A DNA stretch of 64,000 nt, taken from Paludibacteraceae bacterium. Its GTDB lineage: Bacteria > Bacteroidota > Bacteroidia > Bacteroidales > Paludibacteraceae. Below the pieces are notes generated by a model, which was not told where the DNA came from, did not search any database, and worked only from the letters and a program-made list of their open reading frames with translations. The position numbers were made by a program, and so were the translations under genes. This document shows positions 3,154 through 50,653 of the stretch, in pieces (the first letter of the stretch is position 1; every line of letters begins with the position of its first letter). Where the stretch lies: contig JAZKZF010000023.1 in assembly GCA_045612525.1 (NCBI GenBank), forward strand, positions 14,097 through 78,096, in the 5' to 3' direction.

Positions 3154-4233
3154 CTAGTGCATTGTTATGTACTGTATGGGTTGTTCACGGCTATTCTCTA
3201 ACCCTCTGATTAGAAAATCAATTTTCCCAAAGTTAATCTTCTTTAAATCGATGCAGCGAATGGTTGCATTGTACATGGTACGGTAATATAAGCGCTGATT
3301 TTGCAAGTCGCTGACTATCGTTACTTGTGTAGCACTTGGCATATCGGGCATTATATCAGTGTTGCTGAACTGCAAGCCCAAGGGTATATCAAAGTTATTC
3401 ATTAGATGAAATGCCTGTGCAACCGTTTTCTCAGTAGTTTTCAGTCTTGGTGCAGTGGTTTGTAAGATAGCAGCACGGACGAATCTGCTAGGAGGAGTCA
3501 TATCACCTGGCAATCCGAGCAATCCGCTACCGCCTCCGAATGCCTCTAGTGTTAGCTCTCCTATCTCACGTTGAGGCACTGAACCTGGCATAAGATTGAC
3601 GTAGTTATTGAGGTTGGTGATATGCCATGTAAGTTCAGGAGAATTGGTCAGTACACCTAGTGGATTCTCGTGCACTTTTACCTCTTGATTGATAATCTCT
3701 ACAACGACTTGTCTGCCCGAAGGTTCGGTCACACGCCAGTGTACAGTAGAGGCACGTGGATCGATGCCAATCACTCGGATGGTAGGTAAGAGAGCAATCA
3801 TCTCGTCGATTGTAGCGCAGGTACTCAGAACCCATGCCACGAATTGCATATCGCTTACGCACATTGAGTTATCTTCCTCTTTGTATGGCATATATTCGCC
3901 ATATTGAGGGAAATAGAATAGTCCGGCACCTAAGCCAACTTCATTGATACCTTCCATCACAAAGGCATCGTCTTCAACAGCGATACCTACATAGCCGTAG
4001 TTGGCAACGAATTGTTTGCCATTGTTGGTACCATCGGGCAATAGGGAGTACTGCATTTTTCCTCGTGGCATGAGGACATACATGGTGGTGAGTGGTTGAG
4101 CCGCCCATTCGATGGTGCGTGCTGTGATGGGTTGATTACTTTGTGTTTGCAGTGTGATACCTGTACACGCATTTGCCTTGGGTAATGTGAAAACCCATGT
4201 CATCAAGATGATGAGAAAAAGTTTTGTTTTCAT
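3154..4233 (-). CDS. choloylglycine hydrolase family (Ntn linear amide C-N hydrolase; bile salt hydrolase / penicillin V acylase-like)
   Basis: 359 aa. A signal peptide (..PKANA) is followed immediately by Cys (CTGITL), the N-terminal nucleophile position of this family. Confidence 0.8.
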   Translation of the reverse strand: MKTKLFLIILMTWVFTLPKANACTGITLQTQSNQPITARTIEWAAQPLTTMYVLMPRGKMQYSLLPDGTNNGKQFVANYGYVGIAVEDDAFVMEGINEVGLGAGLFYFPQYGEYMPYKEEDNSMCVSDMQFVAWVLSTCATIDEMIALLPTIRVIGIDPRASTVHWRVTEPSGRQVVVEIINQEVKVHENPLGVLTNSPELTWHITNLNNYVNLMPGSVPQREIGELTLEAFGGGSGLLGLPGDMTPPSRFVRAAILQTTAPRLKTTEKTVAQAFHLMNNFDIPLGLQFSNTDIMPDMPSATQVTIVSDLQNQRLYYRTMYNATIRCIDLKKINFGKIDFLIRGLENSREQPIQYITMH

Positions 4234-4448: not shown

Positions 4449-4519
4449 GCGGCATTAGCACATCGGTAGTGCATCGGCTTCCCAAGCCGAGGAGGCGGGT
4501 TCGATTCCCGTATGCCGCT
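4449..4519 (+). tRNA. tRNA-Gly (anticodon CCC)
   Basis: Cloverleaf folded by hand. The acceptor is GCGGCAT/ATGCCGC, the D stem GCAC/GTGC, the anticodon stem TCGGC/GCCGA with loop TTCCCAA, and the T arm GCGGG-TTCGATT-CCCGT. It is 71 nt with no encoded CCA. Confidence 0.9.
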
Positions 4520-4523
4520 CTTG

Positions 4524-4554
4524 GTGAGGCGAGAGGCGAGAGGTTAGAGGCGGG
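4524..4554 (+). repeat. GAGGCGAGAGG / GGTTAGAGG array forming the tRNA-rnpB spacer
   Basis: The sequence is GTGAGGCGAGAGGCGAGAGGTTAGAGGCGGG. A 20-nt stretch (4533-4552) is identical to 10268-10287 inside sdaA. Confidence 0.7.
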
Positions 4555-4556
4555 AA

Positions 4557-4888
4557 TATATAGTGTATCGGTCTATCGCGGGATATGGGAAGAAAAGCGT
4601 ATTGCTTTAATCCCCTATTCCGAGGAAAGTCCGGGCAGCGTAGAGCACCACCGCGGTTAATGGCCGTCAGGCAGTGATGTTTGGTCCCTGCAAAAGAGAC
4701 GAGTAATCCTTAGGGAGGAAGTGATACGAGCATACGGTGGGCTGCAATTCCAAGTATACCGACGTTAGAGCGCTGCTCGCGCGAGTTGGAGGGTAGGAAG
4801 CGATAGAAGCATGTAGCAATACATTGCTCAAGATTAATGGTAGACGCCCTTATAGGGTACAGAACCCGGCTTATAGGTACACTATATA
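4557..4888 (+). ncRNA. rnpB: RNase P RNA, bacterial type A
   Basis: It carries the universal conserved regions GAGGAAAGTCCGGGC (4622-4636) and ACAGAACCCGGCTTA (4859-4873). The 5' TATATAGTGTA pairs with the 3' TACACTATATA (P1), and a T-run follows. The ends are approximate. Confidence 0.9.
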
Positions 4889-4931
4889 TTTTTATTAAGA
4901 TAAGTAATAAAAGAATAATCATAAAAAAGAC

Positions 4932-6776
4932 ATGAAAAAACTGTTGTTAATGTTTGCGCTACTATGTGCAATTAGTTTATCGGCTAAGCCTCGCATCGAT
5001 CGAGCAGAGCCATTGTGCTGGTGGGTGGATATGCAATGTGAATTGACATTATTGTTGCATGGTGAGGATTTATCAGATGCCGAGGTGCATATCAGTCAGT
5101 TGCATAATGGTAAGGTGATGAAAGGTGCTTGCACAGGTTTGGTAGTGAAGGGTCAGCACAATGCTGAGAGCAAGAACTATCTGTTTGTGGATCTGGATGT
5201 GAAAGAGGCGGGTGATTATCGTATTACGCTGAAGAAGGGTAAGCGTAGTACAAGCGTGGATTATAGTATCTATACTCGTCGTGATGGCAGTCGTGAGCGC
5301 GAAGGATTTAGTTCGAAGGATATGATTTACCTGATCATGTCGGATCGATTTGTTGACGGTGATGCGAGCAACAACACGCTGGCAGAGATGGCAGAGGCAG
5401 CAGATAAGAGCAATGTACATGGACGTTTTGGTGGTGATATACAGGGTATCATCAATAGTTTAGACCATATCGCATCGTTGGGTGCAACAGCCATTTGGCC
5501 TACTCCACTCTTGGAGGACAACGAGGCAGCGTGGTCATATCATGGTTATGCATGTTCGGATTATTACCATATTGATCCTCGCTACGGCAGCAACGAGATG
5601 TATTGTGAGTTGGTGGAGAAGGCGCATGAGAAGGGGATAAAGATGATTATGGATATGGTGCCTAATCACTGTGGTGGTACACATTGGTGGATGAAGGATC
5701 TTCCTTACCAAGATTGGATCAACCAATTTGATGAGTTTACCAATACCCACAACGTATTTTCTGCTAACTACGATATCAACGCATCTGAGTTTGATCGTAA
5801 GCTCTCCAACCGTGGTTGGTTCGACCGTCCAATGCCAGATATGAATCTGGAGAATACAGACCTACTGCAATACTTCAAGCAATGGGCGATATGGTGGATT
5901 GAATATGCCAATCTCGACGGTTTGCGTGTGGATACCTATCCATATATAGAGATGATACCAGGTAGCGAATGGGTAAAGGCGATAATGGATGAGTACCCTA
6001 ATCTGAATATCGTGGGTGAGTGTTGGACTCGTCCTACTCCTGCGGTAGCGTATTGGCAGTCGGGTGTGAAGAACCACAATGGTTTTGATAGTCATTTGCG
6101 TAGTGTAATGGACTTCCCGTTAGAAGAAGCTATCCGTCAAGCGTTGGAGAGCAATAACCAAGGTTGGGGCGGTGGTTTGACCCGCGTATATGATGTGCTG
6201 ACGATGGACTATATGTATGCTGATGTAAATAATATCCTGATTATGCTAGGCAACCACGATATGGATCGTATCACCGATGTTGTGAAAGACCAAGATCCTC
6301 GTCGTGTGAAATTAGCAACGGCATTATTGGCCACTATGCGTGGTATACCTCAGGTATTCTATGGCGATGAGTATGGTATGACATCTGCTGACCGTTCTTT
6401 GGGTCACTCTACCCTACGCATGCCATTGCCATTGGGTGAGCAAGTCACTGCCGCACAGCAAGATATGTTTGATTACCAAAGTAGATTATTTCAATGGCGC
6501 AAGGGCGAGGAAGTGATTCACACGGGTCGTACAATGCACTTTATGAGCCGTGATAATACGTACGGCTTCTTCCGTTATAATGATAATGAGGCAGTATTCG
6601 TATTTGCCAATGCAAGTGAAGACAGTCGCACTATACCTACTGGTAACTATGTGGAATTGCTTAGCCAATATAATCCTGTGGGCGTAGATGTGATGACAGG
6701 TAAGACATATGACCTTAGTCAGAGAGATATCGTAGTAGAACCACTATCTACGTTGATTGTGAAACTGCAAAAATAG
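4932..6776 (+). CDS. glycoside hydrolase family 13 (cyclomaltodextrinase / neopullulanase-like alpha-amylase), secreted
   Basis: 614 aa with a signal peptide. GH13 conserved regions DMVPNH, GLRVDTYPY, VGECW and LGNHDMDR are present. Confidence 0.9.
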   Translation: MKKLLLMFALLCAISLSAKPRIDRAEPLCWWVDMQCELTLLLHGEDLSDAEVHISQLHNGKVMKGACTGLVVKGQHNAESKNYLFVDLDVKEAGDYRITLKKGKRSTSVDYSIYTRRDGSREREGFSSKDMIYLIMSDRFVDGDASNNTLAEMAEAADKSNVHGRFGGDIQGIINSLDHIASLGATAIWPTPLLEDNEAAWSYHGYACSDYYHIDPRYGSNEMYCELVEKAHEKGIKMIMDMVPNHCGGTHWWMKDLPYQDWINQFDEFTNTHNVFSANYDINASEFDRKLSNRGWFDRPMPDMNLENTDLLQYFKQWAIWWIEYANLDGLRVDTYPYIEMIPGSEWVKAIMDEYPNLNIVGECWTRPTPAVAYWQSGVKNHNGFDSHLRSVMDFPLEEAIRQALESNNQGWGGGLTRVYDVLTMDYMYADVNNILIMLGNHDMDRITDVVKDQDPRRVKLATALLATMRGIPQVFYGDEYGMTSADRSLGHSTLRMPLPLGEQVTAAQQDMFDYQSRLFQWRKGEEVIHTGRTMHFMSRDNTYGFFRYNDNEAVFVFANASEDSRTIPTGNYVELLSQYNPVGVDVMTGKTYDLSQRDIVVEPLSTLIVKLQK

Positions 6777-6883
6777 TGAGCCCTTTGTATTGGGAAAAGA
6801 CACAAAAATAAGCAATGGTAAGATGGTGGGGGTATATGCCCTCACCATTGCCATAGTAGTGGATTATTAGTAATAGATAAGAT

Positions 6884-7270
6884 ATGTGCGAGCGCAAATC
6901 AACCATAGCCGGTTTAGCGAAAGGAGTGTATAAGGATAGAGGCAGCAAGTTTCTAGCTTTTGCCGAGCCCATCAATGATGAGGATGAGGCAAAAGCACGT
7001 ATAGCTTGGTATAAAAAGAAGTACCACGATGCTCGCCATGTCTGCTATGCCTATCGACTAGGCGAAAACCTTTGGCGCACGAAAGATGATGGCGAACCCC
7101 ATGGTACGGCGGGTATGCCTATTCTTCGCAGCATTGATGCGCAACAATTGGACAATATCTTGGTAGTGGTAGTGAGGTATTTCGGTGGAACACTACTAGG
7201 TACTGGTGGGTTGATGGTAGCTTATCGAGAGGCGACGAAAGAGGCGTTGAAGGATGCGATGAGGGTATAG
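6884..7270 (+). CDS. IMPACT/YigZ family protein, N-terminal domain only
   Basis: 128 aa with motifs [23 protein letters not shown] and [15 protein letters not shown]. It lacks the C-terminal domain of full-length YigZ. Confidence 0.7.
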
Positions 7271-7364
7271 GTGAAAGGTGAAAGGTGAAAGGTGAAAGGT
7301 GAAAAGTGAAAGGTGAAAGGTGAAAGGTGAAAAGTGAAAGGTGAAAAGTGAAAGGTGAGAGGTT
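7271..7364 (+). repeat. 13 tandem heptamers (9x GTGAAAG, 3x GTGAAAA, 1x GTGAGAG) plus GTT, filling the whole spacer
   Basis: Counted base by base. The array runs from the TAG stop (7268-7270) to the coaD ATG (7365). Confidence 0.95.
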
Positions 7365-7811
7365 ATGAAGATAGCAATATTTCCAGGAAGTTTTGATCCA
7401 TTTACGATAGGACACTATGACATCGTGATGCGTGGATTGGAGTTGTTTGATGAAGTAATCATCGGCATAGGTCGCAATGGTACGAAACAAGCCACGTTCC
7501 CCCTTGAGGAGCGTCTATCGGCCATCCAGCGTGTGTTTGAACATGAACCACGTGTGCGCACAATCCTATATCGTGGATTAACAGTGGATTTTGCCACAGA
7601 GTGCGGTGCACAATTTATTTTGCGTGGTGTGCGGTCGGTACAAGACTTTGAATATGAGCGCAGCATGGCCGAGGCCAATAAGCAGTTGAGCGGCATAGAA
7701 ACAGTGTTGCTATATACAAGGCCGGAGTATGCGCATATATCCTCCACCCTAGTGCGTGATTTGTACGCCCATCATAGAGATATAAAACAATATTTACCTC
7801 CAGTAAGATGA
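7365..7811 (+). CDS. coaD: phosphopantetheine adenylyltransferase
   Basis: 148 aa. The N-terminus is [21 protein letters not shown] (HxGH-type nucleotidyltransferase motif), and ISSTLVR lies near the C-terminus. Confidence 0.95.
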
Positions 7812-9364
7812 TGAAACGATATTTTGTGATCATATCCGTGTGGGTATTCGCATCTGCATTACTAGCAGAGTCGGCAACTGCTCGTATTGATAAAAACCTG
7901 ACCATCTATACGGATGTGATGCGTCAGTTGGATATCAACTATGTAGATACGCTGAACTACGATGACCTGATAGAAACGAGCATCAATCAGATGCTGCGCA
8001 AGGTGGACCCATATACGTTGTATATTCCGAAGAGTGAGGATGATGAATTGCGTCGTATAACGCAGGGTAAGTATGGTGGTGTTGGTTCGCTGATCATGTA
8101 TCGCGACAGCAATGTGTATGTGAGTGAGTTGTACGAGGGTATGCCTGCTCAGTTGGCAGGTTTGTTGCCCGGTGACCGCTTTGTAAAAGTGGATGGTGTA
8201 GACTGCGAGGGTAAGAACACAAAGGAGGTGTCAGATTGCTTGCGTGGAAAGCCAGGTACTACGATTAGTTTGGTAGTGGAGCGTGATGGTGAGTTGCTGA
8301 CAAAGGAGGTGACTAGACGCGATATTCACTTGCCTGCAGTGGGATGTGCTACGGTACTGGAAGACTCGATAGGTTATATCTTCTTTAATGAGTTTACGAG
8401 CAATTCGTCACAAGAGTTCTTGGTGGCATTGGATGCGATGGTGCAATCTAACGGGATTAAGCGATTGATAATTGATTTGCGCGGTAATGGTGGTGGTTTG
8501 ATAGACGAGGCAATACAGATCGTGGGATACTTCGTGCCACGTGATACAGAGGTGGTGTCGACGAAGGGTAAAACAGAACGCAGTAATCGTTCGTATAAGA
8601 CTCAGACGTCGCCTATCTTCCCGGATATGCCATTGGTGGTATTGGTAAACGACCAGTCGGCTTCGGCGTCGGAGATAGTGGCAGGTTCGTTGCAAGACTT
8701 GGGTCGTGCTACGATAGTGGGTGAGCGTACGTTTGGCAAGGGTTTGGTGCAGAATATCCGTCCGATAGCATATGGTGGTCATCTAAAAATAACGACAGCC
8801 AAATACTATCTGCCTTCGGGTAGATGTATCCAAGCCATAGACTATGCAGAGCGTCAACGTGGTCATGCATTGCATCGTGATACAGCAGGCGGTATATTGC
8901 CAGATGTGGTACTGACGGATTCGCAGAAGTTGGATATCACGTATAACCTATATCGTGACCATCTGTTTTTTGATTACGCCACTCGCTACTACAAGGAGCA
9001 TGACTCGATAGCGTTGGCAGGTGAGTTTAGGTTGACAGATAGCGATATCGAGGCATTTTGCCAATATCTGGATGAGAAAGAGTTTAGTTATGAGACAGAG
9101 ACGGGTCGCTACTTGGGTGAGCTGATAGATATGGCCAAGCAGGAAGATATCGACTCGACGCTGCTAGCGGAGTTGGAGGCGTTTAAGCCGAGATTGACAG
9201 AGGATTATCGTGCTGCTATCGTTCGTAATAGAAGCGAGGTGGAGCAGTTGTTAGGTGGTGAGATCGTGAAGCGGTACTATTATCATCGTGGTTACTACGA
9301 ATATCTATTGCGCTACGATAAAGATGTGAAGCGTGCAGTGGAAGTGGTTGCTGCCCAAGAATAA
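7808..9364 (+). CDS. S41 family C-terminal processing peptidase with PDZ domain
   Basis: 518 aa with a signal peptide. Motifs DLRGNGGG, SASASEIVAGSLQD and GERTFGKG are present. There is a 4-nt ATGA overlap with coaD. Confidence 0.88.
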   Translation: MMKRYFVIISVWVFASALLAESATARIDKNLTIYTDVMRQLDINYVDTLNYDDLIETSINQMLRKVDPYTLYIPKSEDDELRRITQGKYGGVGSLIMYRDSNVYVSELYEGMPAQLAGLLPGDRFVKVDGVDCEGKNTKEVSDCLRGKPGTTISLVVERDGELLTKEVTRRDIHLPAVGCATVLEDSIGYIFFNEFTSNSSQEFLVALDAMVQSNGIKRLIIDLRGNGGGLIDEAIQIVGYFVPRDTEVVSTKGKTERSNRSYKTQTSPIFPDMPLVVLVNDQSASASEIVAGSLQDLGRATIVGERTFGKGLVQNIRPIAYGGHLKITTAKYYLPSGRCIQAIDYAERQRGHALHRDTAGGILPDVVLTDSQKLDITYNLYRDHLFFDYATRYYKEHDSIALAGEFRLTDSDIEAFCQYLDEKEFSYETETGRYLGELIDMAKQEDIDSTLLAELEAFKPRLTEDYRAAIVRNRSEVEQLLGGEIVKRYYYHRGYYEYLLRYDKDVKRAVEVVAAQE

Positions 9365-13081: not shown

Positions 13082-13107
13082 GACCGCTGCGCTGGTAGAG
13101 GTTAGAG
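13082..13107 (+). repeat. mini element CCGCTGCGCTGG + GTAGAGGTTAGAG filling the stop-to-start spacer
   Basis: It shares CGCTGCGCT with the 45.1 kb element and the GGTTAGAG unit with the 16.0 kb array. It ends directly at the ATG at 13108. Confidence 0.5.
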
Positions 13108-15123: not shown

Positions 15124-16037
15124 TGATAAGAACAAGGAATAAGGAACAAGGAGTAAAGACAGCTAGACGAATAATTCTTATTTGTCTTGTTTCTTGGTTC
15201 TTGACTCCTGTATCTATCATGAGTCAAGTGTTATACCGCATATCGGGTAACTCGGCGCTCGCACCATCGTATATATTGGCCACCAATCGGATGGTGGATA
15301 TGCGGTTTATTGATACCATCCCGAATGCATTTAAGTGCTTTGCTGAGTGCGACAAAGTGATTACCGAATTTGCGATGCAAGACTACGAGGCGATAGCCGC
15401 CTTGCGTCAGGCAGCCCTCCTACCCGACTCAGTAAGATTGCGCAATTTTTATAGCGATGAGCAATATCAGGAGATAGACGAGAGTCTTCGCATTAATCTG
15501 GGTATGGGTTTGGACAAATTAGGTAGGATGAAACCTTCGTATTTGGCAGAGATGTATCGCAATGAATTGATGAAACGTTGGCTGAACTATGATGAAGAAT
15601 GTACGATGGAGACATTCTTTGAGAAGGTGGCTTTGCAAACGGATATACCGGTATTGGGATTGGATGATGTGGGCGAGACGATGTATATGCTATTTGACCG
15701 TGAGCCATTTCATTGGCAATGCGATGAACTACTGAAAGTGATAGAATATCCTGAGAAAGAAGTGCGTTTTGAACGCCAATTGGTGGAGATGTACAAATAT
15801 GGTCGTTTGGCTGATATGGCATATTTTGTGAAAGGACCTGACAACCAGACATCGCTATCGTACTCTGATTATCAGGTGTTTGCTAAACGTAATAAAGTAT
15901 GGGTGAAACGACTAACACCCTATTTGAAAGAGGGTAAAGCATTTATCACACTGAATGCCATCTATCTAGGAGGAGATGATGGATTGTTGGCGCAACTGAA
16001 AGCCGCAGGGTATCGAGTGAAGGCGGTGAATAAGTAG
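15120..16037 (+). CDS. TraB/GumN-like family protein (divergent)
   Basis: 305 aa. LYRISGN..APSYILATNRM aligns with the family motif LW.I....S.YLFGT.H, but the G and H positions are replaced. There is a 4-nt overlap with the TPR gene. Confidence 0.5.
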   Translation: MMIRTRNKEQGVKTARRIILICLVSWFLTPVSIMSQVLYRISGNSALAPSYILATNRMVDMRFIDTIPNAFKCFAECDKVITEFAMQDYEAIAALRQAALLPDSVRLRNFYSDEQYQEIDESLRINLGMGLDKLGRMKPSYLAEMYRNELMKRWLNYDEECTMETFFEKVALQTDIPVLGLDDVGETMYMLFDREPFHWQCDELLKVIEYPEKEVRFERQLVEMYKYGRLADMAYFVKGPDNQTSLSYSDYQVFAKRNKVWVKRLTPYLKEGKAFITLNAIYLGGDDGLLAQLKAAGYRVKAVNK

Positions 16038-16124
16038 GTTATAGGTTAGAGGTTAAAGGTTAAAGGTTAGAGGTTAAAGGTTAGAGGCAAGAGGTTAGAG
16101 GTTAGAGGTTAGAGGCGAGAGGTT
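16038..16124 (+). repeat. 12 tandem heptamers (GTTATAG, GTTAGAG, GTTAAAG, GCAAGAG, GCGAGAG) plus GTT, filling the whole spacer
   Basis: Counted base by base from the TAG stop (16035-16037) to the ATG (16125). The terminal GAGGTTATG junction matches the one at 7357-7367. Confidence 0.95.
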
Positions 16125-17189
16125 ATGGGTAAGATAGGTTCGTTCTTCAATCGCAATGCGTTGTCATTGGCCATGCTAGTAGGTGTGGTGGGTTGTTCTG
16201 TGTTTAGACATCTGACGTGGATGTTACCACCACTGATATTCCTAATGCTGTTCTTTACCTTCTGCAAGATTAATCCGCTTGATTTGAGATTGAGGAGATG
16301 GCATTGTGTAGTATTGTTGACGCAATTGCTACTGGGGATAGGACTATATTATGGACTACAAGTAATCGGCAATGAGGTGATAAGGCGATTAGGTGAAGGG
16401 GTGATAGGAGGAAACGATATTGCTATTATCTCACAGGGATTGATGCTGTGTGTGCTGATGCCAACGGCTACTGCGGCACCAATCATAGCTGGTAAACTAG
16501 GGGGAAGTATTCAAAATTTGACCTCATTCACGCTGTTAAGCAATATCGCTACGGCGATTATTGTGCCCGTATTCTTTCCGATAGTCAATCCGAGTGCGGG
16601 TATCGAGTTTGATGTTGCATGCTGGATGATACTCAAGAAGATTAGTCCACTATTGCTGGGACCATTCTTTGCAGCGTGGTTGTTGCGGATTGGCTATAAT
16701 GCATATCATCGCCATAAAGGTACGGGCAAGACATTTACCTTGTCTGCAAAATGGGCACCGATGCCATTCTACGTATGGGTAGTGACGCTGATTATCCTGA
16801 TGGCAGATTTGACCTATACTCTGATTCATCAGGAGTATAGCTACTGGACAATAGGTATCTTATGCGTGGGTTCGATAGGAACGTGTCTGTTGCAGTTTGG
16901 ATTGGGTCGCAGGATTGGTTTGCGTTTTCCTGCCACGACCAAGGGTGAGGATTATCATGATGTGCTTATCAATCCAGCTGCAGCGAATTATAGTATGGAA
17001 CAGGTGAGTCGTATCACAGCGGGGCAAGCCTTTGGACAGAAGAACACTACCCTAGCCATCTGGATGGCTCAAGCGTATCTCGTGCCTGTAGCATCGATGG
17101 CCCCTGCCGCCTATATCATTTGGCAGAATCTATTTAACTCGATTCAACTGAGTAGAGAAGGACGAAAAGCAAACAAAAAAGGAGCGTGA
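16125..17189 (+). CDS. bile acid:sodium symporter (BASS/SBF)-like membrane transporter
   Basis: 354 aa and polytopic. The segments MPTATAAPIIAGKLGG...LLSNIATAIIVP and GQKNTTLAIWMA resemble BASS core motifs. Confidence 0.55.
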   Translation: MGKIGSFFNRNALSLAMLVGVVGCSVFRHLTWMLPPLIFLMLFFTFCKINPLDLRLRRWHCVVLLTQLLLGIGLYYGLQVIGNEVIRRLGEGVIGGNDIAIISQGLMLCVLMPTATAAPIIAGKLGGSIQNLTSFTLLSNIATAIIVPVFFPIVNPSAGIEFDVACWMILKKISPLLLGPFFAAWLLRIGYNAYHRHKGTGKTFTLSAKWAPMPFYVWVVTLIILMADLTYTLIHQEYSYWTIGILCVGSIGTCLLQFGLGRRIGLRFPATTKGEDYHDVLINPAAANYSMEQVSRITAGQAFGQKNTTLAIWMAQAYLVPVASMAPAAYIIWQNLFNSIQLSREGRKANKKGA

Positions 17190-17201
17190 TGCTCCTTTTT
17201 T
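17177..17201 (+). terminator. intrinsic terminator overlapping the stop codon
   Basis: The stem is GGAGC-GTGAT-GCTCC with the TGA stop in the loop. An A-run precedes it and TTTTTTAT follows. Confidence 0.65.
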
Positions 17202-17204
17202 ATT

Positions 17205-17429
17205 GGTGTAAGGTGGAAGGTGAAAGGTGAAAGGTGAAAGGTGAAAGGTGAAAAGTGTATGGTGGATGGTGTATGGTGTAAGGTGTAAAGTGTAAAGGCG
17301 GGGCGGCTGAGCCGCAATTTCTGGGACTTTAATCTATAAACTATTATAACCTCTAACCTTTAACCTATTATAAACTATAACCTCTAGTCTTTAACCAATA
17401 ACCTATTATAACCTTTAACCTATAACCTA
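17205..17429. repeat. composite element: 13 GGTGnAn heptamers / GC core hairpin / inverted GTTAnAG-type array
   Basis: The left arm is 17205-17295. The core AAAGGCGGGGCGGCTGAGCCGCA is 17294-17316. The right arm is 17331-17429 and reads TAGGTTATAGGTTAAAGG.. on the minus strand, starting at the aminotransferase stop codon. Confidence 0.9.
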
Positions 17430-18632
17430 AACTAACTTAGCCAATGCCTCTTTCATGCGGCGCATAGCCTCGATGATAAGGTCTTCGCTGGTGGCATAGG
17501 AGAAGCGAATGCAGTTGTCTTCGCCAAAAGCACTACCTGATACGCATGCCACGTGTGCCTCTTGCAAGAGGTAGGTGACCAACTCATCGGCGTTGTGGAT
17601 GGTTTGTCCGTTGTATTGCTTACCAAAGAAGGCCGTGATATCAGGGAAGAGGTAGAATGCACCTTGTGGCTCAAGCACCTTCATACCAGGGATATCCTTA
17701 GCAAGTCCTACGATCAAGTTGCGACGACGATGGAAGGCTTGACGCATTTCCTCAACGCAGGCTTGTGGACCTGTGTATGCAGCTTCTGCAGCTTTTTGCG
17801 CGATGGTAGTGGCACAGCTGATGACTTGTCCTTGCAAGCGTTTCACTGCAGTAATCAAGTCTTTGTCATGGCTTGCCAACCATCCGATACGATAACCAGT
17901 CATGGCATAAGCTTTGCTGACACCATTGATGATAACGAGGCGGTCTTCGAGCTCAGGGAACTGTGCTAAGGTCTCGTGCTTGCCAGTATAGAGAATGTGT
18001 TGGTAAATCTCGTCAGCGAGCACAACCACTTGTGGGTGACGCTTGAGTACTTCTACTAATGCCTTGAGGTTGTCCAAAGTGTAAACGGAGCCTGTAGGGT
18101 TGTTAGGAGAGCAGAGCATTAGGAGTTTGGTAGCAGGAGTGATGGCAGCCTCGAGTTGCTCGGCAGTGAGGCAGAAATTGTTGTCCATCGTTGTTTTGAC
18201 GAGCACGCTCTTGCCTTGGGCAATCTTCACCATCTCTACATAACTTACCCAGCATGGTGTAGGCATGATGACCTCATCGCCGGGGCCAATCAATGCTTCG
18301 ATAGCATTGCAGATGGCTTGCTTAGCACCTACTGATACAACTATCTCGTTGGCATTGTATGGGCGCACAGGGTAATCCTTGATATCACGATTGAGTGTGT
18401 CGGCTATTGCTTGACGCAAAGCTGGGAAACCAGGTGTAGGACCATAATGTGAGATATCGTTGTTGATGGCATCAATAGCGGCTTGCTTGACATGTGCAGG
18501 AGCAGGGAAATCAGGTTCGCCCAATGAAAGACCAATCACATCTACTCCTTCGGCACGGAGTTGTTGGCACAAAGCAGCCACTTGCAAAGTAGCTGATTCT
18601 TCAAGTGCTGCAATACGTTGTGAAATCTGCAT
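17427..18632 (-). CDS. pyridoxal-phosphate-dependent aminotransferase (aspartate aminotransferase-like, class I)
   Basis: 401 aa with motifs NNPTGSVY and SKAYAMTGYRIGW (PLP lysine). Confidence 0.88.
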   Translation of the reverse strand: MQISQRIAALEESATLQVAALCQQLRAEGVDVIGLSLGEPDFPAPAHVKQAAIDAINNDISHYGPTPGFPALRQAIADTLNRDIKDYPVRPYNANEIVVSVGAKQAICNAIEALIGPGDEVIMPTPCWVSYVEMVKIAQGKSVLVKTTMDNNFCLTAEQLEAAITPATKLLMLCSPNNPTGSVYTLDNLKALVEVLKRHPQVVVLADEIYQHILYTGKHETLAQFPELEDRLVIINGVSKAYAMTGYRIGWLASHDKDLITAVKRLQGQVISCATTIAQKAAEAAYTGPQACVEEMRQAFHRRRNLIVGLAKDIPGMKVLEPQGAFYLFPDITAFFGKQYNGQTIHNADELVTYLLQEAHVACVSGSAFGEDNCIRFSYATSEDLIIEAMRRMKEALAKLV

Positions 18633-25625: not shown

Positions 25626-25707
25626 ATTGGATGGTAATTGAGTGGTAACGGAATGGTAACGAAATGGTAACGTGAAAGAATGTAGAAAGGATGTAGAAAG
25701 AATGTAT
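25626..25707. repeat. short-unit arrays (ATGGTAAC-type x4, then GAATGTAGAAAG-type x2-3) abutting the SDR stop codon
   Basis: Read directly: ..GGATGGTAATTGAGTGGTAACGGAATGGTAACGAAATGGTAACG.. then AATGTAGAAAGGATGTAGAAAGAATGTA. Confidence 0.7.
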
Positions 25708-25709
25708 CC

Positions 25710-26537
25710 TTACTTCTGGAATCTTCCAACCAACTTAATCGCCAAGAATACCAACCAATCAGGCGTATGCTTGAGTAATGGTGTGCAGAGGTGGTTGATC
25801 ACGCCAGGCATATCGGCTTTCTTGCCACGGAACATCTTCTTGAGGGCACGTTTGACGAGTTTCTCAGGTGGGATAGCCACGGTCAAGTTCACCGCTAAGC
25901 GGCGCAAGTGAGGTGCTAAGCCAAAGAGTTCGGTATCTACAGCGCCAGGAGTCATCACAGTGATATGCACACCCTTAGGTTTGAATTCATACCAAAGCGA
26001 CTTGGAGAAATTGTAGATAAATGCCTTGGTGGCATTGTAGGTTTGGATGCCAGGCATAGCCATCCATGCAGACATAGACGACATATTGAGGATATAGCCC
26101 TTTTGGCGTGGTTTGCCACAGAGTTTTTGCGCTTGTTCTTCTGCTGTGAGTTGGCGGTTGATCATCTCCTCGCCAAAGAGGCGGGTGAGTTTGGCCACCG
26201 TGATCATATGCAAGTTGAGCATGAGCTCGATGCGCTTCATGCTGGTCTCGCAATAAGGGTTGAAGAAGAAGACGCCAGCGTTGTTGATGAGGATATCCAC
26301 GACAAGGTGGTTGTCCTTGCAGTATTGGAGCAACTGCTCCGCTGCATCTTGCTTGGAGAGGTCGGCATAGAGAGGAATGGTCTTTACGCCATATTGAGTA
26401 GCGAGGTCAGCAGCCACTTGTTGGAGTTCTGCTTCTTGGTTGCTAACCAACAGCAGATCGGTATGATAATCACGCGCGAGTTGGGTGGCATATTGGAGGC
26501 CAATACCCGATGAGGCGCCTGTTACTAAAGCTAACAT
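25710..26537 (-). CDS. short-chain dehydrogenase/reductase (candidate hydroxysteroid dehydrogenase)
   Basis: 275 aa with the Rossmann motif TGASSGIG and the catalytic motif YNATK. It is the last gene of the reductase operon. Confidence 0.85.
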   Translation of the reverse strand: MLALVTGASSGIGLQYATQLARDYHTDLLLVSNQEAELQQVAADLATQYGVKTIPLYADLSKQDAAEQLLQYCKDNHLVVDILINNAGVFFFNPYCETSMKRIELMLNLHMITVAKLTRLFGEEMINRQLTAEEQAQKLCGKPRQKGYILNMSSMSAWMAMPGIQTYNATKAFIYNFSKSLWYEFKPKGVHITVMTPGAVDTELFGLAPHLRRLAVNLTVAIPPEKLVKRALKKMFRGKKADMPGVINHLCTPLLKHTPDWLVFLAIKLVGRFQK

Positions 26538-26546
26538 ATATTTTTT

Positions 26547-26657
26547 AGTTGAAAGTTTAAAGTGTAAAGTTTAAAGGCAGGGCGGCTATGCCGCAGTACC
26601 TAGCCTATAACCTATAGCGTAGCGTCCTATAGCCTCAAAGAGGCGTCCTATAACCTA
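26547..26657. repeat. composite element: GTTTAAAG-type array / GC core hairpin / inverted CCTATAACC-type array
   Basis: The core AAAGGCAGGGCGGCTATGCCGCA (26573-26595) matches the core at 17294-17316 at 20 of 23 positions. The right end CCTATAACCTA contains the stop codon of the upstream gene. Confidence 0.85.
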
Positions 26658-31993: not shown

Positions 31994-32944
31994 ATGAATT
32001 ATCGATTTTCTGGCAAAAGCGGTTTGCAACTACCACTGGTATCCCTGGGTTTATGGCATAATTTTGGCAGCGCAGATCCCTCGGATGTAGCTCGTGCAAT
32101 GCTGTTGCACGCATGGGATAATGGCGTAACTCATTTTGATATAGCCAACAATTATGGTCCTGCTCCAGGTACGGCTGAGATGACGTTTGGCAGAGTATTG
32201 CGCGAAGATTTAGCGTCGCATCGTGATGAGATGATTATCTCCTCCAAAGCAGGCTATTTGATGTGGGATGGTCCTTATGGCGATGGTGGTTCGCGCAAGT
32301 ACTTGATTGCGTCGTGCGACCAGAGTTTGAAGCGTACGGGATTGGAGTATTTTGATATATTCTATTCGCATCGTTACGACCCTAACACTCCGATAGAGGA
32401 GACGATGCAAGCACTGGTGGACATTGTGCGGGCCGGCAAGGCGCTGTATGTAGGCATAAGCAATTATCCCGCAGATAAGCAGGAGGAGGCGTATAGGTAT
32501 CTTCAAGCGGCGCATGTACCGTGCGTGATTAGTCAATACAAAGCAAGTATACTTTGCCCCGAGACGTTGCAGGAGAATATGCCTGTGGCCAAGGCTCATG
32601 GTTCGGGCTTTATCTGCTTCTCCCCTTTGGCTCAGGGATTATTGACAGACCGTTATCTGCATGGTATTCCCGCAGGTAGTCGTGCGAGCAAGAATGTGTT
32701 TCTTCGTCCGGAGCACGTGACGGAGGAGGCGGTAGTTCGTGCACAGCGCTTGGGTGCTATCGCAGCCGAACGCGGTCAGACGTTGGCTCAGATGGCCATC
32801 TCATGGTTGTTGGCCCAAGATGTGACGAGCGTGATTGTAGGTGCGAGCAGTGTCAAGCAATTGGATGATAATCTGCAGGCGATTAAAAATATACAGTTCA
32901 CGGAAGAGGAAATGAGGTTGATTGGGCGAGAGGCGAGAGAATAG
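31994..32944 (+). CDS. aldo/keto reductase (YghZ/Tas-like)
   Basis: 316 aa with AKR family motifs (GLW.NFG, DIANNYG, SSKAGY, HRYDP). Confidence 0.88.
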   Translation: MNYRFSGKSGLQLPLVSLGLWHNFGSADPSDVARAMLLHAWDNGVTHFDIANNYGPAPGTAEMTFGRVLREDLASHRDEMIISSKAGYLMWDGPYGDGGSRKYLIASCDQSLKRTGLEYFDIFYSHRYDPNTPIEETMQALVDIVRAGKALYVGISNYPADKQEEAYRYLQAAHVPCVISQYKASILCPETLQENMPVAKAHGSGFICFSPLAQGLLTDRYLHGIPAGSRASKNVFLRPEHVTEEAVVRAQRLGAIAAERGQTLAQMAISWLLAQDVTSVIVGASSVKQLDDNLQAIKNIQFTEEEMRLIGREARE

Positions 32945-32949
32945 AGAGG

Positions 32950-42694: not shown

Positions 42695-42750
42695 TTGGTG
42701 TTTAGTGAACGCCCTGCGGGCTACTGTTTAGTGTTTAGTGATTTGATTAG
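42695..42750. repeat. GTTTAGTG array / GCCCTGCGGGC hairpin / GTTTAGTG array
   Basis: It spans the whole 28-nt spacer and the last codons of cinA. The TAG stop is the CTA at 42721-42723. Confidence 0.8.
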
Positions 42751-45114: not shown

Positions 45115-45185
45115 GTGTTTAGTGAACGCTGCGCTACTGTTTAGTGTTTAGTGAACGCTGCGCTACTGTTTAGTGTTTAGCGTTT
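45115..45185. repeat. 29-nt unit GTGTTTAGTGAACGCTGCGCTACTGTTTA x2 plus a partial third
   Basis: Read directly. It belongs to the same family as 42695-42750, contains the def stop codon (45177-45179) and ends 5 nt from the mntP start. Confidence 0.9.
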
Positions 45186-45725
45186 GGTGCGATAGCGAGC
45201 GGAAACTTTGCCTTTGGCAATGTTGGTGAGTTTGGTTTTGACAAACTGGCGGCGTATAGGTGAGATACGATCGGTAAAGACGTGTCCCTCGAGATGGTCG
45301 TACTCGTGTTGGATAATACGTGCTGCAAAACCATCGTAGGTTTCCGTATGCTCGGTGAAATTCTCGTCCATATAGCGAATGGTGATGCTGGCAGGGCGAA
45401 TCACATTCTCCGAGATACCAGGTAGTGACAAGCATCCCTCAGAGAATGTGTTATCCTCTTCGCTCTCCTCAATAATCTCAGGATTGATAAACACTTTCTT
45501 AAAGTCCTGACACTCAGGATAATCCTCTGCCAGTTCGGTTCCATCTACAATGAAAAGACGAATGGCTTTGCCAATTTGTGGTGCAGCAAGTCCGCATCCC
45601 TCAGCTACAGCGAGTGTTTCCCACATATCAGCAAGCAGTTGCTTCAAATCCAATGACTCAGGCGTAATGTCCTCTGTGGGTTTACGCAATACGGGTTGTC
45701 CGTATAAATATATAGGTAAAATCAT
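45177..45725 (-). CDS. def: peptide deformylase
   Basis: 182 aa with motifs GLAAPQIG, EGCLSLPG and QHEYDHLEG. Confidence 0.95.
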   Translation of the reverse strand: MILPIYLYGQPVLRKPTEDITPESLDLKQLLADMWETLAVAEGCGLAAPQIGKAIRLFIVDGTELAEDYPECQDFKKVFINPEIIEESEEDNTFSEGCLSLPGISENVIRPASITIRYMDENFTEHTETYDGFAARIIQHEYDHLEGHVFTDRISPIRRQFVKTKLTNIAKGKVSARYRTKR

Positions 45726-45785: not shown

Positions 45786-45851
45786 ATAGTGCGTGTATTG
45801 TGCGTGTATTGTGCGTGTATTGTGCGTGAATAGTGCGTGAATAGTGCGTGA
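45786..45851. repeat. six tandem 11-mers (ATAGTGCGTGT, ATTGTGCGTGT x2, ATTGTGCGTGA, ATAGTGCGTGA x2)
   Basis: Counted directly. It lies between the ruvX stop and the def start. Confidence 0.9.
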
Positions 45852-45859
45852 TTGATAGG

Positions 45860-50250: not shown

Positions 50251-50653
50251 CTGCTTTTTTTTGATATGTGCAAATTTTTGTGCGTTTTTTTGAATTTTTC
50301 TTGTTTTTTGAAACTACCCTGATTTTTACCTTCATGCTCTTAAATCGCAAATTTATAGCCTTTTGACTCATTTTACCACACCTTACACATACTGCGCGTA
50401 CGCGCGTAAGGCTTTTTTATCAATAGGTAAATATGCCTTGCTAATAGCAGCCATTCAAGCGCTTACCCCTAGGTTATATCCTGCAACATAGCTGGTATAT
50501 TCAACGGCATGTTATCTTTTGCATTGTATAGGTTTGGTATAGGTGTAGTATAGGTTTGGTTGTAGCAAAAATTGGAATGCGACCAATCATAAATGACACG
50601 AGAAAGTATGTGCTTTTTTTTTAAAAAAATTTGGTTATTTGTAAATATTTTTG

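Follow-up and report, generated by a model that had tools for sequence, protein, structure and literature searches.

We analyzed a 64,000-nt stretch of DNA from an assembly of a Paludibacteraceae bacterium (GenBank GCA_045612525.1, contig JAZKZF010000023.1, positions 14,097 to 78,096, forward strand), referred to here as the window; coordinates are window positions unless another contig is named. The spacer between a YigZ-like gene and coaD, the gene for pantetheine-phosphate adenylyltransferase (PPAT), was found to consist of tandem heptamers whose number differs among assemblies of the same species. It is close to certain that the feature at 7271-7361 is a genuine polymorphic simple sequence repeat (SSR). 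The reading that we favor as a whole, and regard as probable, is that of a hypermutable heptanucleotide variable-number tandem repeat (VNTR) that is driven by slippage and serves as a largely passive spacer.

The spacer (7271-7364) is 94 nt long, and direct reading of the window showed it to be wholly taken up by 13 head-to-tail heptamers and a GTT:

7268-7270, plus strand: TAG stop of the upstream gene, with the array beginning at the very next base.

7271-7361, plus strand: heptanucleotide array of 13 units (nine GTGAAAG, three GTGAAAA, and one GTGAGAG).

7362-7364, plus strand: GTT, read directly, between the last unit and the coaD ATG (7365).

With G for GTGAAAG, A for GTGAAAA, and E for GTGAGAG, the array reads G G G G A G G G A G A G E. 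An initial annotation, made from the sequence alone, had counted nine, three, and one of these units and had them fill the whole stop-to-start spacer, in agreement with our reading. Tandem Repeats Finder (TRF) returned period 7 and 13.6 copies at 92% matches, with a score of 162, the highest in the window. The unit dimer, the 14-mer GTGAAAGGTGAAAG, had 21 matches in the window at no more than two mismatches, against 0.44 expected from shuffles; 21 was reached in 0 of 100 shuffled sequences. Sliding-window autocorrelation over periods 4-12 gave five runs of period 7 (344 nt) and otherwise only period 10 (one run) and period 11 (three runs). The array thus has the beyond-chance head-to-tail copies of a 1-11 nt unit that define a long SSR (LSSR) sensu Mrazek, here of the heptanucleotide SSR/VNTR class. 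Units whose length is not a multiple of three are confined in that class to non-coding DNA, and the long period-7 arrays of the window are likewise intergenic. The plus strand of the coaD spacer array contains no C. Absence of C or G was rejected as a signal in itself, since we estimate that close to half of all random AT-rich heptamers would be without one or the other.

Comparison of the orthologous spacer among related strains, which the initial annotation had proposed, revealed unit-number polymorphism, from 2 to 18 units in same-species assemblies. The allele set comprised the window and 10 other contigs of the species (ENA, JGI, and Logan) with flanks about 99% identical, traced through near-identical relatives (CoaD 98-99%) and through the exact YigZ-like protein. 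The latter is recorded in 44 blocks of the public collection; exact-protein look-ups with the CoaD, the TraB-family protein, and the transporter of the window gave no matches there. Besides the 13 units of the window, spacers of 2, 6, 7, 17, and 18 units were each found once and spacers of 4 units five times. Spacer length was 7n+3 nt in all 11 alleles. The claim that stop and start codons stand in register with the unit is correct in this sense and carries nothing further, the reading-frame offset between the two genes varying among alleles. Ten of the 11 alleles finish in GTGAGAG GTT ATG, so that the last unit and GTT form the same coaD start context, GTGAGAGGTT; the 2-unit allele has GTGAGAT GTT.

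The patterns of variant units are nested among alleles, from G A G E through G G A G A G E to the array of the window, which is what stepwise gain of units would produce. In an ungapped comparison, 920 nt of flanks showed differences at 1-13 positions only, with contig L216 set aside for a left flank shifted by an upstream indel. Alignment of about 6 kb (98.6-98.8% identity) showed no internal indel of more than one base other than whole heptamers, in the coaD array and in a GAGGCGA array at 4532. Length therefore changes by whole units between constant flanks, as expected of a VNTR.

Repeats are prone to mis-assembly, one same-species contig (L205) stops within the sister array of 16038-16124, and contigs carrying the upstream gene are mostly shorter than 2 kb. 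An assembly or sequencing artefact is nonetheless scarcely credible: ten assemblies made independently (ENA, JGI, and Logan) agree in the junction and the unit family, their flanks are identical and their alleles nested, and 94 nt is below both the typical read length and the k=141 used for several of the assemblies. In 29 of the 44 collection blocks with the exact YigZ-like protein there was no contig above 2 kb. Heptamer repeats are a probable reason why short-read assemblies of this lineage are fragmented.

One allele (L222, 874-918) has a different unit in the same spacer, GTTATAG (GTTAAAG)3 GCGAGGA GTGAGAG. It resembles the array at 16038-16124 of the window, and it opens with the 14-mer TAGGTTATAGGTTA, which begins with the gene's own TAG and is found exactly at 16035-16048 (plus strand) and 17416-17429 (minus strand). 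The resemblance suggests exchange or homogenization between arrays at separate loci.

The array has no counterpart in the closest other species (L001-L003, CoaD 90-91% identical), where the spacer is 0-20 nt without a repeat; in several others the stop adjoins the start. More distant relatives have at the yigZ-coaD junction either nothing or tandem repeats of unrelated units (TTTAGTG, AGTAATA/AGTTAAT, CACAATG(C), TGTTTAG around a small hairpin, or 15-mers), and one (L027), with a different upstream gene, has about 13 GATAGTT/GATAATT units before coaD. Judged from these junctions, the array arose recently, within this species, in an ancestrally short operon-internal spacer. Four GATAACT heptamers were also seen directly upstream of coaD in an unrelated bacterium, a gammaproteobacterial metagenome-assembled genome (L073, 3960-3987).

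The genes on either side are the following:

6884-7270, plus strand: YigZ/IMPACT N-terminal-domain gene, 128 aa (full Pfam UPF0029/Impact_N domain, 4.3e-36).

7365-7811, plus strand: coaD (TIGR01510 equivalog at 166.7 bits, cutoff 103.3; Pfam CTP_transf_like).

7808-9364, plus strand: S41 C-terminal processing peptidase gene (Pfam Peptidase_S41 and PDZ), overlapping the coaD stop by 4 nt.

TIGR01510 confirmed the initial call of coaD, and a protein 98% identical to the CoaD of the window is named PPAT by JGI. The accompanying call of a YigZ-like gene has to be narrowed: the NCBIfam YigZ model matched the open reading frame (ORF) at 6884-7270 only at model positions 20-129 of 205, under its cutoff, so the ORF is only the N-terminal half of YigZ. 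All YigZ/IMPACT homologues in the relatives seen (L001-L032) likewise carry UPF0029 only and lack the C-terminal DUF1949 domain; the truncation is thus older than the repeat. By its CoaD relatives, the window falls in an uncultured gut/rumen lineage of Paludibacteraceae (Bacteroidales).

The gene order of yigZ-like gene, coaD, and S41 peptidase gene was found in all same-species contigs, and from its 4-nt overlap the peptidase gene probably belongs to the same transcription unit as coaD. A scan of 6700-7900 for sigma-70-like promoters and intrinsic terminators returned only a hairpin upstream of the first gene, and the Bacteroidetes-type TAnnTTTG motif was absent from the plus strand in 6600-7400. 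The spacer had been described as leaving no room for a promoter or terminator, and these searches bear that out; an internal promoter or terminator in the array was rejected on the same grounds. Because neither was found in or around the array, the three genes are most likely co-transcribed, with the array as part of their mRNA. At gathering score, Rfam 15 matched only tRNA and RNase P RNA across the window and nothing on the arrays.

As part of such an mRNA the array is predicted to be largely unstructured. In the fold of a 161-nt RNA the first ~70 nt of the array were unpaired and the last units paired weakly with the coaD start (z = -0.84); in a 461-nt RNA about 72 nt of the array formed an unpaired loop (z = +1.13). 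Both z-scores fall inside the range of shuffled sequences, and the array alone had a minimum free energy of 0.0 kcal/mol. A hairpin of the type known from the hmw genes was rejected, as the array has no complementary partner and is unpaired in both folds.

The GG-N5-GG spacing of the units had led to the suggestion that they could form two-tetrad G-quadruplexes (G4). As a G4 element in DNA or RNA, the array would affect transcription or translation, as has been proposed for the GGGNATC heptamers of Xanthomonas and Nostoc. The spacing is indeed regular in stretches of as many as four or five successive GG-containing units, and the array is placed as heptamers that form G4 are, on the coding strand and no more than 50 bp past a stop (PMC4692102). 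The ViennaRNA quadruplex model found no G4 in the array, and switching the model on left the fold unchanged; the model energy for two tetrads and three 5-nt linkers was +12.8 kcal/mol, although the controls GGUGGUGGUGG and (GGGAAUC)n did fold. G4 heptamers are recognized by at least four tracts of at least three G with short loops and by K+-dependent G4 formation in vitro; here the tracts are GG, the loops are 5 nt, and three GTGAAAA units break the spacing. The GTTAAAG-type allele and the TTTAGTG, AGTAATA, and GATAGTT arrays of relatives hold the same position with fewer GG tracts or none. A quadruplex role is accordingly very improbable.

The array had also been seen as a run of overlapping Shine-Dalgarno (SD) motifs. 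AGGUGA is complementary to the conserved UCACCU of the 3' end of bacterial 16S rRNA (the 16S gene of this organism lies outside the window), and Bacteroidota make little use of SD pairing. An SD-like 4-mer precedes only 7 of the 48 genes of the window. The motif AGGTGA stands at -12 to -7, 6 nt before the coaD ATG and at a canonical SD spacing (5-9 nt), in 10 of the 11 alleles, and the GTTAAAG-type allele has GGAG in that place. CoaD orthologues of the family have no SD-like motif upstream, and some overlap the upstream stop. With copy number unconstrained and only the proximal AGGTGA nearly constant, the array as a whole does not appear to be a run of working ribosome-binding sites. A chain of GTG...TGA mini-ORFs (GTG AAA GGT GAA AGG TGA, with overlapping GTGA) relaying ribosomes through the spacer was rejected as an explanation for the class, the GTTAAAG allele and an AGGTTAG array having no start codon.

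These data also bear on a possible expression rheostat, in which AGGUGA copies would act as SD-like or standby sites, or the length of the array would set the coupling to the upstream gene, so that slippage would give strain-specific levels of CoaD. Such a role would suit the 16S complementarity, the copy placed always 6 nt before the ATG in GTGAAAG-type alleles, and a copy number that spans 9-fold among strains, and the transcribed heptamer SSR of hmw, with expression set by length, offers a precedent (PMC12721329). But the hmw mechanism requires a long hairpin in the 5' untranslated region (UTR), coaD is a housekeeping gene and no typical contingency gene, and arrays of the same class occur also after terminators and between convergent genes. 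Taken with the scarcity of SD-like motifs in the window and before family coaD genes, these points make the rheostat unlikely. Any quantitative effect of copy number on the expression of coaD is probably modest at most.

The coaD spacer is one of several loci of the window that carry such arrays:

4526-4552, plus strand: short GAGGCGA/GAGGTTA array (TRF), flanked by tRNA-Gly(ccc) (4449-4520) and RNase P RNA (4560-4889), which are 40 nt apart.

16038-16124, plus strand: sister array of 12 GTTAGAG/GTTAAAG/GCGAGAG heptamers and GTT, filling the TAG-to-ATG spacer from a TraB-family gene to a BASS-like transporter gene.

17205-17298, plus strand: third array, of GGTGTAA/GGTGAAA units, downstream of the terminator hairpin of the transporter gene and including the GGTGAAA run at 17219-17253.

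17327-17426, minus strand: GGTTATA/GGTTAAA-type heptamers directly after the TAG stop of an aminotransferase gene (17427-18632).

The junction at 16035-16127 reads TAG, 12 units, GTT, and ATG, and ends in GAGAGGTTATG, as the coaD junction does. In the sister species (88% amino acid identity) the array is absent, the spacer being TAG TTGGGGAG ATG with 8 nt between the two codons, and L205 breaks within this array. The recurrence of the GGTGAAA run at 17219-17253, reported by the initial annotation, is real and part of the longer third array; L205 lacks this block and has different units in its downstream array, so the recurrence is strain-specific. The GC mini-hairpin GGCGGGGCGGCTGAGCCGC parts the third array from the minus-strand heptamers that follow. 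Within two mismatches, TAGGTTATAGGTTA had 18 matches against 0.31 expected, and several arrays of this genome belong to one unit family, NAGGTKA. The array at 4526-4552 is itself copy-number polymorphic, two same-species contigs (L081 and L082) having one whole unit fewer.

The elements at 17190-17437 and 26537-26655 are composite: G-rich heptamers are followed by a GC hairpin (GGCGGGGCGGCTGAGCCGC or GGCAGGGCGGCTATGCCGC) and by C-rich TATAACC-type heptamers that reach the stop of a gene on the minus strand. Each is a long imperfect palindrome, and strain L205 has other units in both arms. Another, dispersed element consists of TGTTTAG heptamers around a short hairpin, GTGAACGC...GCGCTAC. It was found upstream of minus-strand genes at 42695-42720 and 45115-45189, and at the yigZ-coaD junction of another species (L023, ~3940-4000; CoaD 75% identical). 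At two further operon-internal junctions, 13082-13107 (GGTAGAGGTTAGAG ATG) and 32925-32949 (GGCGAGAGGCGAGAGAATAGAGAGG ATG), the ATG comes just after one or two units belonging to the family of the arrays, the latter junction lying partly within the 3' end of the upstream gene; such units are perhaps the seeds of arrays, or their remnants.

The intergenic sequence of the window has many short tandem arrays, of periods 7, 8, 9, 10, and 11, beside starts and stops. Over 274 kb of ingroup loci, TRF arrays peaked at periods 7 (18 arrays), 11 (16), and 14 (12). No comparable peak was found in 357 kb of outgroup loci at 7 (6 arrays, four of them copies of one dispersed repeat) or 11 (2 arrays). Of the arrays with at least 2.8 copies, 40 out of 51 were intergenic. 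Arrays of period 11 (also 22 nt) occur in the window at 25631-25706, 45789-45854, and 50526-50560 and in four ingroup loci (L012, L015, L022, and L023), with units unrelated to each other (ATGGTAACGGA, GTGCGTGTATT, ATAGGATAGTT, and others). The coaD spacer had been called odd for a Bacteroidota-like genome; this view is not supported, the spacer being one of many arrays in this genome and lineage and of a class of bacterial heptamer repeats already described.

Arrays of the same unit are not limited to this lineage. Exact (GTGAAAG)4 was found in at least 120 metagenome contigs, in arrays of 4 to 29 units; 80 of these contigs were fetched (loci L085-L164), with 32-65% G+C and from many samples. 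From the window alone, the orientation of arrays with respect to replication or transcription was ambiguous, most being G-rich on the plus strand whatever the gene direction. The metagenome sample settles the orientation as a gene-end polarity. Among the matches listed, 34 of 67 loci had a gene on the G-rich strand with its end no more than 30 nt ahead of the array, and only 7 of 66 had, on the other side, an opposite-strand gene ending within 30 nt. The arrangement of the window, with a same-strand start no more than 30 nt after the array, recurred in only 3 of 66. Where a long ORF ended at the array (40 loci among these matches), the stop codon was a TGA triplet of the array itself in 17. 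A strict model of seeding from the stop codon was only partly supported, since beyond these own-TGA cases the stops keep no preferred register with the unit.

The unit contains TGA, and since its length of 7 shares no factor with 3, a GTGAAAG array has on its G-rich strand a TGA in each of the three frames per 21 nt. The CTTTCAC strand has no stop in any frame, which accounts for an ORF of 123 aa on the minus strand (7119-7490) that crosses the array antisense to yigZ and coaD and encodes LSPFTFH repeats. This ORF is almost certainly spurious, though gene callers could annotate such frames. An array could thus abut or overrun the 3' end of a gene in the sense orientation only, as that orientation supplies stop codons, and the polarity of the class would then reflect selection.

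Polarity is also what a protein-binding platform might produce, with the heptamers as tandem RNA or single-stranded DNA sites of ~7-nt footprint (cold-shock/OB-fold, S1, or RRM-type proteins) in a post-transcriptional or 3'-end role. Arrays from separate loci of the genome have a conserved AGGT core, the coding-strand polarity after stops is strong in many taxa, CspB has been reported to bind as one molecule per heptamer, and S1, Csp, or CsrA have been proposed for TAACTGA repeats (PMC4679880). The stop-codon content of the unit can, however, explain polarity by itself. The unit sequence varies at orthologous junctions between species of the family and within the species (L222), copy number is unconstrained, and the array at 17205 sits downstream of a terminator hairpin. 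We therefore consider a platform quite improbable. A broader version would have a selected, cross-phylum class of stop-anchored, coding-strand heptamer arrays that act in RNA, as all-frame insulators or 3'-end elements or as platforms for proteins with a 7-nt footprint, that in this species exchange NAGGTKA units between loci, and whose copy number is a fast heritable rheostat of coaD. This combination is distinctly unlikely.

Under the preferred reading of a slippage-driven, largely passive VNTR, the spacer would gain and lose whole units as strands slip and mispair during replication, and arrays of different loci would occasionally exchange sequence or be homogenized. The array would be transcribed inside the yigZ-coaD-S41 peptidase mRNA and would remain there a passive spacer, forming no stable helices because it contains no C. 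An all-frame TGA every 21 nt would stop read-through or frameshifted ribosomes within a few codons, and the last unit with GTT would hold the coaD start context nearly constant while the number of units upstream drifts. The array does not look like a sequence-specific regulatory element, and nothing tested indicates a regulatory switch.

Several points weigh against this reading. The passivity of the array is read from sequence features, and the proximal unit may matter for initiation at coaD. The NAGGTKA family at several loci, with TAGGTTATAGGTTA opening two arrays, could mean sequence-specific constraint rather than drift, and the strong coding-strand polarity would equally suit a function at the RNA level. 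Simple slippage does not account for the preference for periods 7 and 11. Short-read metagenome assemblies may collapse repeats, which makes individual counts of more than about 15 units (>100 nt) less certain.

With alleles of 2, 4, 6, 7, 13, 17, and 18 units before the essential coaD, operon-internal and in an SD-poor phylum, the species offers a natural series suited to testing the effect of heptamers on expression; bacterial heptamer repeats have long been noted and never explained. For an uncultured gut/rumen Paludibacteraceae lineage, the arrays provide hypervariable markers of strains, and they are a likely source of contig breaks and spurious antisense ORFs in its metagenome assemblies.

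The array is a further case of a known class of bacterial repeats, that of the LSSRs of Mrazek and of the heptamers of Xanthomonas/Nostoc and Beggiatoaceae. A literature search for the unit dimer found it in no paper with a bacterial context. Cyanobacterial STRR heptamers form a comparable repeat family. As cited in later work, heptanucleotides are the commonest long SSR unit class in prokaryotes, and have been attributed to polymerase slippage and tied to the length of DNA that contacts the polymerase (Mrazek, Guo and Shah 2007, via PMC4679880 and PMC4692102). The coaD array shares with these LSSRs, so far as they are described there, a head-to-tail 7-nt unit, a non-coding location, a length far beyond chance, and a copy number variable between close relatives. 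The survey as cited did not include uncultured Paludibacteraceae, and the array differs in making up a complete stop-to-start operon spacer, in a lineage with a second period of 11 nt.

The TAACTGA direct repeats are known from marine Beggiatoaceae, cyanobacteria, and a few Bacteroidetes, including Paludibacter propionicigenes, and S1, Csp, or CsrA were proposed to bind them (MacGregor 2015, PMC4679880). Like these repeats and STRR, the arrays described here are intergenic heptamers near gene boundaries, have units that include stop triplets, and are sporadically distributed in phylogeny; Paludibacter belongs to the same family. TAACTGA repeats mostly have 2-6 copies, just upstream of starts and in forward orientation, with one genome-wide unit, whereas the present units are diverse and their arrays longer and stop-anchored. 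None of the units of the window (GTGAAAG, GTTAGAG, GGTGTAA, GAGGCGA, and TGTTTAG) equals TAACTGA or the STRR units CCCCAGT, TTGGTCA, and CAACAGT.

In Haemophilus influenzae, (ATCTTTC)n in the 5' UTR of the adhesin genes hmw1A and hmw2A pairs with a G-rich region to form a long hairpin that is cut by RNase III, with expression inverse to repeat length (PMC12721329). Like it, the coaD array is a heptamer SSR that precedes a gene and is probably transcribed, and its copy number varies among strains, most likely by slippage. It differs in its housekeeping gene, its operon-internal position, and its lack of a promoter consensus and of a pairing partner, and does not have the marks of phase variation.

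A parallel in position is given by the GGGAATC and GGGGA(C/T)T heptamers of Xanthomonas and Nostoc, which follow stops on the coding strand at no more than 50 bp and are nearer to the 5' neighboring ORF (Rehm et al. 2015, PMC4692102). They are found genome-wide, over-represented between co-oriented genes and with many housekeeping neighbors, vary in length and sequence among close relatives, and have no known function (PMC4692102). (GTGAAAG)n shows the same polarity, after stops and on the coding strand. The Xanthomonas/Nostoc heptamers contain runs of three or four G, fold into G4 in vitro, and occur preferentially as four copies, whereas only GG is present here and no G4 is predicted. The positional bias is common to both and so cannot depend on quadruplexes. 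That a unit with no predicted quadruplex has the same stop-anchored polarity argues for another source of it, most simply the presence of all-frame stop triplets in only one orientation of the units.

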